Below, one piece after another: positions 43,129 to 44,271 of a stretch of DNA of 64,000 bases. Each line of letters starts with the position of its first letter. Positions within the stretch are counted from its first letter, which is position 1. The position numbers were made by a program, and so were the translations under genes. This DNA comes from Defluviitaleaceae bacterium (GTDB lineage Bacteria > Bacillota > Clostridia > Lachnospirales > WRAX01). Below the pieces are notes generated by a model, which was not told where the DNA came from, made no database searches, and saw only the letters and a list, made by a program, of their open reading frames with translations. The stretch spans positions 539 through 64,538 of the forward strand of contig WRAX01000011.1 of the NCBI GenBank assembly GCA_009779935.1, read 5' to 3'.

Positions 43129-43384
43129 TATTTTAATAACAACCCTATTATATTTGACGGCGCAGGGGAACGGGTTCGTGAAGTCTGGATAAGCGAAGAA
43201 CACACTGTAACGCTTCATACGGGATGGGGCTTCGGTAAACGTACCACTATACACTACTTATCTTCTTCTGTTGGCGTTGCGCCCCCATTTATGTATGGCT
43301 TGGGTGGAAGCGGCACACATCTACATAGAGTTTTGGGAGACGACAGCCTTGTAGAACGTAATGTAAATAACGCCACTATGCTTA

Positions 43385-43912
43385 TTAGTCGCAATCAATT
43401 TGCAGTCTGTGTTTGCCGCAACTCAGACAATGAAACAGATAGCCTTGTAGTCTGCCGTCGTTGGAGAGGTGTTCTTTGACCATCGAAATTGGATATTCCC
43501 CATTTGCCGAAATATCTTCTTCAATTTCTGTTGCTATCCCCATTTGCTCTATCTCGTTCCATCCTACATAGCCTATAAAAGCACAAAAATCATTACAATG
43601 AGCAGGCCAATACTCTTGTTGCCACCCACTATATCCGGGCGTTCGAGTGCACAGTTCATTTAGTTTCTCAATGTCGCCAATTTCATCGCATGATGATTCA
43701 TCTTGGAATGTGCCATCAAATTTTTTGCTTGCTCTACCACTTTTTATATATTCAGGACACAAAAACTCAACTTCTCCTTCTGAATAAAATGGTCCGGAAT
43801 AATAAACGCTTGTGTCTTTATCACAACACTCACAAGTCACGATTTCATCCGTCTTAAACATCCCTGTTTTTATTGGGTCGGGATGGTACTTGAATATTGG
43901 TAATTTTACCAT
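43385..43912 (-). CDS. cbrC: CbrC-family protein (UPF0167)
   Basis: [14 protein letters not shown]...CECC...VYYSGPFYS...CPEYI...[20 protein letters not shown] is the CbrC family pattern. Confidence 0.75.
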
Positions 43913-43954
43913 TGGTTTCTCTCCTTTTCATAATACAGTTTGAAAGCGTAAGTT

Positions 43955-44109
43955 TATAAATTTTGCGCACGTACCCATGCTTGCAGTGGTACATAAGTGC
44001 CCCTCTGTTTTTATTATCCAAATAGTATAGTCATTTTATCACAACTTTGGATTGTTGTAGAGAAGTTCACGAACTGCGTTATTTATGCCCTTCACAGCTC
44101 ACGTTGTAG
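43955..44109 (-). repeat. Copy c3 of the conserved upstream module
   Basis: See c2. It has the same length and block order. Confidence 0.8.
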
Positions 44110-44271
44110 CTCGTGGCTTCTTCACTATAAACGTATTAGGTGCTTGGTTTATGCCCATTACCCACAATATTAATGCAGAAGCCTTTATTATGGGCGTAAC
44201 ATGCTTAGGGGCTATTTGTATAATGACATTAAAAAACAAGCTATTGATAGTGGTTTGTTTGGCAACTATTT

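Follow-up and report, generated by a model that had tools for sequence, protein, structure and literature searches.

Outside integrons, small self-contained mobile units that carry a single gene are known only as scattered cases, the mobile insertion cassettes (MICs), examples of which are MIC231 of Bacillus cereus, mobilised by the transposase of the insertion sequence (IS) IS231A, mic-qnrD and mic-qnrS2. A MIC has inverted repeats, no transposase and usually a target duplication, and mic-qnrD in particular combines inverted repeats of 24 bp with a 2-bp duplication and a promoter of its own and has no known transposase (PMC3913671). Elements of the IS30 family make 2-bp duplications at a consensus target and form circles with 2 bp between the abutted inverted repeats (PMC5821093). 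Here, we describe two accessory gene units, one with a cbrC gene and one with a deaminase gene, that lie between dnaB and an M23 peptidase gene in 64,000 nucleotides of a Defluviitaleaceae bacterium (GenBank assembly GCA_009779935.1, contig WRAX01000011.1, positions 539 to 64,538), referred to throughout as the window. With a probability of about 0.68, both units belong to a family of non-autonomous gene cassettes with bracketing inverted repeats that comes closest to MICs among described systems and is moved in trans. More than 100 such cassettes with different accessory genes are present in termite-gut Defluviitaleaceae; no description of the family was found in the literature searched, and this set of MIC-like cassettes is apparently undescribed.

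A reading of the window made from its letters alone (the sequence-only reading) had described the cbrC unit as an inverted repeat, promoter and leader, gene and second inverted repeat in the manner of a MIC. This architecture recurs across the family and the cassette is found in other contexts, as set out below. In the window the cbrC cassette consists of the following parts:

43352-44108, minus strand: the whole cbrC cassette, 757 bp, bounded by the TA of its left repeat and that of its damaged right repeat.
44075-44108, minus strand: left (promoter-side) terminal inverted repeat of 34 nt, the outer block of module copy c3, TACAACGTGAGCTGTGAAGGGCATAAATAACGCA; profile score 44.1 bits.
44033-44061, minus strand: extended -10 promoter-like site from a promoter scan, TCTACA, a 17-nt spacer and TAAAAT with TG, at a position conserved in the family modules.
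43956-44003, minus strand: leader palindrome (GCAC-TTAT-GTACCAC...GGGTAC-GTGCGC) between the promoter and the ribosome-binding site (RBS), found with nhmmer, 61 family copies and a fold.
43385-43912, minus strand: the cargo gene cbrC, CbrC/UPF0167 family, 175 aa (PF03691, E = 4.9e-60, residues 4-174).
43352-43374, plus strand: right terminal inverted repeat, shortened by an internal deletion of 11 nt, TAGAACGTA^ATGTAAATAACGCC, beginning 10 nt past the cbrC stop.

The neighbouring deaminase cassette has the same parts:

42387-43127, minus strand: the whole deaminase cassette, 741 bp, both repeats at full length.
43094-43127, minus strand: left repeat of 34 nt, the outer block of module copy c2, TAGAACGTGTGCTATGCAGGGTAGAAATAACGCA; 46.4 bits.
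43052-43081, minus strand: extended -10 promoter-like site, TTGTCA, an 18-nt spacer and TAAAAT with TG; promoter scan, 10 of 12 matches.
42974-43023, minus strand: leader palindrome (nhmmer, fold), with a word depth of 180-350 over a baseline of 13 in public runs X1 and X3.
42446-42961, minus strand: the cargo gene, a CDA-fold nucleoside/nucleotide deaminase of 171 aa (PF00383, PF14437).
42387-42420, plus strand: right repeat of 34 nt, TATGACGCACATTGATAAAGGTTGAAATGACGCT; 28.7 bits, ungapped, and conserved in locus L027 (31.6 bits).

A module of about 180 nt lies 5' of each accessory gene, its copies c2 (42973-43127) and c3 (43955-44108) being 75% identical over 160 nt with their promoter-like sites at equivalent positions. 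The CbrC protein scores 216 bits against the NCBIfam model colicin_tol_CbrC, under the equivalog cut-off of 300, and is therefore named as a family member for which tolerance to colicin E2 is not demonstrated. The deaminase is TadA-like but far under the equivalog cut-off, with 39.6 bits versus 150 for the TadA model.

The sequence-only reading had placed two cores of the outer block just downstream of the cbrC stop, inverted relative to c3, and both are sited as it claimed (TAGAACGT at 43352-43359 and AAATAACGC at 43365-43373, plus strand); the string that holds them is real but starts at 43347 rather than 43349, a trivial offset. In the 64 kb TAGAACGT has three matches against 0.41 expected and AAATAACGC four against 1.19 expected, and the remaining copies are the outer blocks of c2, c3 and a third module copy, c1. 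A 34-column profile was built from 23 family blocks and applied, with one internal deletion permitted, to the 254 nt that separate c2 from the cbrC stop; the optimum fell at 43352-43374 with 16.6 bits and 11 profile positions absent after position 10, a score reached by 0 of 300 shuffles (mean -4.7, standard deviation 3.8, maximum 11.8). The 11-nt deletion is also directly visible by comparison with loci L025 and L026, whose full 34-nt right end follows the stop at the equivalent place. Conservation of the short matches in orthologous loci had been set beforehand as one test of the claim, and an inverted block was found right after the cbrC stop in L025, L026 and L006. Judged from these alignments, the right end of the cbrC unit is an 11-nt deletion derivative of the outer block, and because 11 nt of the repeat have been lost this copy of the cassette is probably no longer mobile but fixed in place. 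For the deaminase unit a weaker candidate end, TTGAAATGACGC, had been offered; that it marks the end of the unit is borne out, but its true position is 42408-42419, where it forms the core of a full-length 34-nt right repeat and is not weak.

The distribution of the block was studied with a pattern that fits c1 to c3, GCTNTNNAGGGNNNAAATAACGCA, scanned against contigs representing one genome per species and against metagenomes of the Joint Genome Institute (JGI). The former gave 18 loci, of which 11 belong to metagenome-assembled genomes (MAGs) of termite-gut Defluviitaleaceae and one to an Oscillospiraceae MAG from a shared sample, the rest being evident chance matches, and the latter gave 115 stretches, nearly all from termite gut. 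Over the 11 Defluviitaleaceae MAG loci and about 107 metagenome loci the conserved block is 34 nt long with the consensus TAGGATGTGTGCTGTGAAGGGTGGAAATAACGCA. Of the first 16 copies aligned, all begin with T and 14 have A as the second base. In 232 kb of shuffled sequence nothing scored 12 bits or more against the 34-nt profile (23 copies). A search for the module in plasmid and phage collections gave no match, and viral contigs gave one family-like block, on an element with a TraG-like open reading frame (ORF). Two identities considered for the block, a LexA/Cheo box and a CRP-type site, were discarded on inspection of their spacing, which does not fit, and a stem across the outer block is not conserved between copies.

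The blocks come in pairs. Two are present in 29 of the 107 metagenome loci, 538-1812 bp apart and always convergent except in two abutted pairs; the 28 pairs from these loci, five of which re-sample loci of the genome scan, are joined by further pairs in L014, L025, L026 and the window. An inverted partner (at least 14 bits, within 2.5 kb) lies inward of 37 of the 50 block ends that have at least 1500 nt of inner-side sequence, and outward of none of 59. As the search pattern played no part in the choice of the right-hand copies, this bracketing is independent evidence. The inner extensions differ by end (right …ACGCTAATAATG, left …ACGCAGTTCG), and the blocks at the two ends of a cassette resemble each other no more than those of different cassettes do. 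A cassette opens with the left repeat, followed by the extended -10 promoter, the leader palindrome, the RBS and a single gene (two or three in rare cases), and is closed by the right repeat. Most of the 33 cassettes examined follow one plan, in which a single leader palindrome is found 64-110 nt from one end, the ORF points away from this palindrome, and 0-30 nt separate the stop of the cargo from the far block's inner edge. A form without a gene was not found among the family loci.

More than 30 cassettes share this architecture while their cargo is unrelated. The cargo includes several GNAT acetyltransferases, an APH phosphotransferase, NTP_transf_2 nucleotidyltransferases, glyoxalase/bleomycin-resistance proteins and S-adenosylmethionine (SAM) methyltransferases, as well as GrpB, NUDIX, MazG, LigT, ParE, RelB-YoeB, a CAAX protease, a zeta/AAA_18 kinase, HEPN_Apea, the deaminase and CbrC; a D12 DNA methylase is followed by a second ORF with no Pfam match, and many further proteins have no Pfam match either. 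Such a repertoire is of the kind seen in chromosomal integron arrays. The HEPN_Apea gene is in the window itself, behind the third left repeat:

4759-4792, minus strand: left repeat of module copy c1, 40.9 bits, preceding a HEPN_Apea gene (3260-4666, minus strand; PF18739).

The c1 module copy (4690-4792) is shorter than c2 and c3, and no right-repeat candidate of at least 4 bits for its unit was found within 2700-3300.

Some blocks form a subfamily, TTCAATGTACGCTATAGAGGGTGTAAATAACGCA with CCCGAAAATATAGCG, in a conserved context (L039, L042, which equals the IMG/VR contig L034, L048, L054 and L059). In L039 and L042 the subfamily block overlaps the 3' end of an ORF that is TraG/VirD4-like by the look of its sequence alone, and in L132 a left end lies about 800 nt from a MobA/MobL relaxase gene; the proximity of these genes suggests that conjugative or mobilisable elements carry some of the cassettes.

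The leader palindrome, AGGGCGCAC-TTAT-GTACCAC-N7-GTGGTAC-GTGCGC-AAAATTTA, forms a separate repeat family that is far commoner than the 34-nt blocks, with 61 distinct copies (loci L010-L150) and a word depth of 180-350 versus 13. The window holds three, all on the minus strand, at 42974-43023, 43956-44003 and about 4700-4745. It always stands some 15-25 nt before the RBS and start of a gene unit, including units without inverted repeats, and each gene unit, also within multi-gene cassettes, has it at its 5' edge. Units of palindrome, RBS and ORF are found stacked inside cassettes (L014, L143) and also outside a chassis (L027, L028), the chassis being the left repeat, promoter and leader palindrome. 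The palindrome's sequence is conserved, and as its 61 copies contain only 7 compensatory cells we make no claim of an RNA selected for its structure. An Rfam search of 40500-46000 with E up to 1 gave nothing relevant, which indicates that the module is not a known riboswitch or leader.

Both units of the window recur in other genomic contexts. The cbrC cassette is present in L025 and L026 with 91% nucleotide identity from window position 44102 or 44099 to 43363 and with unrelated flanks; the homology begins within the left repeat and ends within the right one. L025 and L026 have their right flank in common, whereas their left flanks diverge from the left repeat outward, and both are mosaics, with an identity that rises from 45-85% across the 5' chassis to 95-100% over the gene and the right flank, which points to recombination inside cassettes. 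In L006 a CbrC homologue of 74% identity lies in another context with the core TGCGTTATTTATG directly after its stop. The deaminase unit is found in L027 and L028 with 93% identity from the leader palindrome (43030) to 42386; the homology ends one base past the outer edge of the right repeat, and the left repeat is absent. A cbrC gene without chassis occurs in L003-L005, where homology extends from 43961, just past the palindrome, to 43378, 7 nt beyond the stop. In L003 and L004 (4900-4960 and 5650-5700) this chassis-less cbrC is flanked by two hairpins of another common type, composed of a stem, a TGTGG loop and a stem (GCCAATTGGTTAG-TGTG-GCTAACCAATTGGC and CAGTTGACTAG-TGTG-GCTAGTCAACTG), which hints at a second hairpin family that delimits gene units. 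The cbrC cassette of L026 adjoins SUKH/SMI1_KNR4, DUF3885 and DUF6138 genes (L026 1410-2741 and the downstream genes of L025 and L026). This neighbourhood, typical of immunity-protein arrays, would fit a protective role of CbrC-family proteins.

The ends of the cassettes are marked by TA, which forms the first two bases of 88 of 110 distinct ends (80%) and is present at both ends of 29 of 35 cassettes. Beyond it a weak flank consensus is common to both end types (110 ends, L036-L150), with C at -11 (77%), A at -12/-14 and RA at -6/-5, and this looks like a symmetric target-site preference centred on TA. The ten bases adjoining TA differ between the deaminase units of the window and L027 and hence belong to the flank. 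Flanks are no more alike within than between cassettes (5.69 versus 5.55 matches, p = 0.33), by which cassette-specific extended repeats and a palindromic target were both rejected. Ends abut back to back as TA-TA in L041 (about 650-690) and L060 (141-212), and in a contig of runs X3/X4 aligned to L094 a right end is joined to a left end via a single TA; abutted right and left ends of this kind could be either neighbouring insertions or a circle junction.

That the islet between dnaB and the M23 gene lacks a transposase or integrase had been noted from its ORFs, and none is present there (Pfam recognises CbrC and the deaminase). Nor do about 40 cargo ORFs of other cassettes include a transposase carried family-wide, and clustering of all ORFs of at least 120 aa from the metagenome loci disclosed no transposase or recombinase recurrent near cassettes. 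The large ORFs inward of unpaired ends encode an RCC1-repeat protein, an SLH protein, a MobA/MobL relaxase, an IS110 transposase and several proteins of no known identity. Other mobile elements are nested in two cassettes, an IS200-type Y1 transposase gene between cargo and right end in L043 (5164-5562, plus strand) and an IS110-family element inserted between promoter and cargo in L095 (714-1904, plus strand).

Non-autonomous cassettes of the MIC type would account for these observations as follows. The cassettes would move, or have moved, as units when an enzyme encoded elsewhere binds both repeats. The likeliest enzyme would be a DDE transposase that inserts at TA, either IS630/mariner-like or akin to the 2-bp-duplicating IS30 family; a 2-bp signature restricted to TA points to IS630/Tc1-mariner chemistry. 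With a promoter of its own, the cargo would be freed from dependence on the site of insertion. Both cassettes of the window may have landed in a variable spot downstream of dnaB, where the deaminase copy would have kept both its ends and the cbrC copy probably became fixed after the 11-nt loss.

Several observations weigh against this interpretation. No IS with these repeats around a transposase was met with in about 110 ends and about 0.5 Mb of family loci, where the sole nearby transposases are the nested IS200 Y1 (L043) and the inserted IS110 (L095), and to our knowledge neither of these families uses such terminal inverted repeats. No direct repeat longer than TA (2-9 nt) was found at any boundary offset from -22 to +3, and TA, itself palindromic, could be merely the first two bases of the repeat. 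The tip of the repeat is less conserved than its inner part. Most cassettes are single in the sample, so that recent bursts of transposition are not evident. An empty site was not recovered, the M23 orthologues being 46-60% identical and too divergent; in the closest (58% and 46% identity) the gene content of the interval differs, and in public runs X1-X5 no joint was seen to skip a cassette, whether at the window or at L094. Finally, simple transposition leaves unexplained how unrelated genes sit so precisely in the same chassis.

This last point, the regularity of the chassis, together with the abundance of the palindrome and the mosaics of L025 and L026, may leave room for a system of cassette exchange beyond a simple MIC. 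Such a system could amount to a Firmicutes counterpart of the integron, in which a standard expression chassis takes interchangeable gene units, an idea that we put forward tentatively and hold to be possible rather than probable. The chassis, made of the 34-bp left repeat, extended -10 promoter and leader palindrome, would be closed by the distinct right repeat, and the gene unit would comprise palindrome, RBS and ORF, the palindrome acting as exchange site or as a control site common to the units; one enzyme of the host would mobilise the chassis once loaded. Units of this composition are the ones found stacked in L014 and L143 and outside the chassis in L027 and L028.

An unlikely explanation is site-specific recombination by a serine-type or Xer-like enzyme, with strand exchange at the central TA. 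The blocks would then be element half-sites and the flank positions host half-sites, an arrangement like that of attL/attR in large-serine-recombinase elements or of the inverted pdif sites around dif modules on Acinetobacter plasmids. The single TA per junction with no longer duplication, the symmetric flank consensus that reaches about -14/-20 on both end types, beyond that of many transposases, and the failure to find a transposase would all suit it, and the right and left ends abutted over TA have the form expected of the attP-like site of an excised circle. However, inspection of the 34-nt block reveals neither internal dyad symmetry nor the 11-6-11 layout of Xer sites, a self-complementary TA core gives a serine recombinase no directional control, and inverted sites lead to inversion, not excision. 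No recombinase gene recurs beside the cassettes, which are dispersed singletons in many contexts and do not occupy one attachment site.

It is very improbable that the blocks are protein-binding or insulating sites of a regulatory design and that the chassis has spread by duplication, homologous recombination or gene conversion. The chassis is indeed some 75-80% conserved between cassettes with unrelated cargo, L025 and L026 testify to recombination within cassettes, the leader palindrome is conserved in sequence and not by compensation, as a protein-binding site would be, and cbrC exists without a chassis in L003-L005. Yet a regulatory design offers no reason for an inverted copy 0-30 nt past the stop in 74% of units, the left block lies upstream of the promoter and outside the transcript, and homologous recombination cannot put one unit between unrelated flanks with breakpoints at the block edges. 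That the 8-nt and 9-nt matches past cbrC are a chance resemblance hardly merits consideration, for while short words recur and AAATAACGC is found also within genes in L003 and L005, none of the 300 shuffles attains the gapped score, L025, L026 and L006 carry the block at the equivalent position and the family-wide count is 37 of 50 versus 0 of 59.

The locus of the two MIC-like cassettes is further described by these features:

40853-41929, minus strand: M23 peptidase gene, the best homologues of which are named as Defluviitaleaceae, the family of the window's organism itself.
42017-42183: palindrome of 167 nt adjoining the deaminase cassette.
43128-43351: unique spacer of 224 bp between the deaminase and cbrC cassettes, belonging to neither.
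44496-45845, minus strand: dnaB, with a small ORF between the cbrC gene and dnaB.

The M23 gene, deaminase gene, cbrC, small ORF and dnaB are all on the minus strand. On the cassette reading, the islet is not a two-gene operon but two independent insertions into a variable spot. The spacer shows single-copy word depth in public runs X1 and X2 and is absent from X3 and X4, and no block or module similarity was detected in it. The dnaB-M23 interval is a variable spot: in the relative L031 it is occupied by a pair made up of a DNA methylase and an Eco47II-type restriction gene and by an M32 peptidase (L031 2288-5849), and the small ORF after dnaB is kept in both L031 and the window. The surroundings of dnaB (window 44109-44495 and 45861-47829) are a hot spot for accessory genes, and between rplI (L9) and dnaB the window harbours a GNAT gene and a transglutaminase-core gene where L031 has none. 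The 167-nt palindrome is multi-copy in the same metagenomes (depth 218 versus 13), and in L014 and L021 related palindromes are found some 270 nt outward of the left repeats.

One termite-gut bacterial family thus holds more than 100 small units with putative resistance, detoxification, toxin-antitoxin and defence cargo. If the mobilising enzyme were found, they would represent a new route for the shuffling of accessory genes in Firmicutes, and a compact natural vector design of promoter plus gene plus ends.

The cassettes resemble those of integrons in being small (0.5-1.8 kb) and mostly single-gene, in the striking similarity of their cargo and in a conserved imperfect palindrome for each gene unit. 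They differ in that there is no attC with RYYYAAC/GTTRRRY cores, that the bracketing repeats are inverted and not direct, and that the palindrome, with arms GCGCAC/GTACCAC, lies 5' of the ORF; moreover, they have predicted promoters of their own and occur singly or paired, not arrayed beside intI/attI, and no integrase recurs nearby. With the pdif modules of Acinetobacter they share the form of accessory modules without a recombinase, bracketed by short inverted sites and placed in varied contexts, but pdif sites are 28-bp XerC/XerD sites of 11-6-11 layout and the 34-nt block has no such dyad. MITEs (miniature inverted-repeat transposable elements) that duplicate TA, such as the Correia elements of Neisseria and the Stowaway-like elements derived from IS630/Tc1-mariner, likewise have terminal inverted repeats, TA ends, promoter activity and no transposase in cis, and we know of no cognate transposase for Correia elements; MITEs are, however, non-coding and shorter than about 300 bp, whereas the cassettes here carry complete genes. 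IS30 elements are similar in their inverted repeats of 20-30 bp and their extended consensus target, and the TA-joined ends of the X3/X4 contig may be compared with their circles, but their duplications are not restricted to TA and no IS30-type transposase was seen in the family loci. Closest are the MICs, which likewise hold one or more passenger genes between two imperfect inverted repeats with no internal transposase, and of which one unit may be found in several contexts. Known MICs, however, are sporadic derivatives of recognisable IS elements with one or a few types of cargo, whereas the family described here has more than 30 cargo genes on one chassis, distinct left and right ends and more than 100 copies in one bacterial family.

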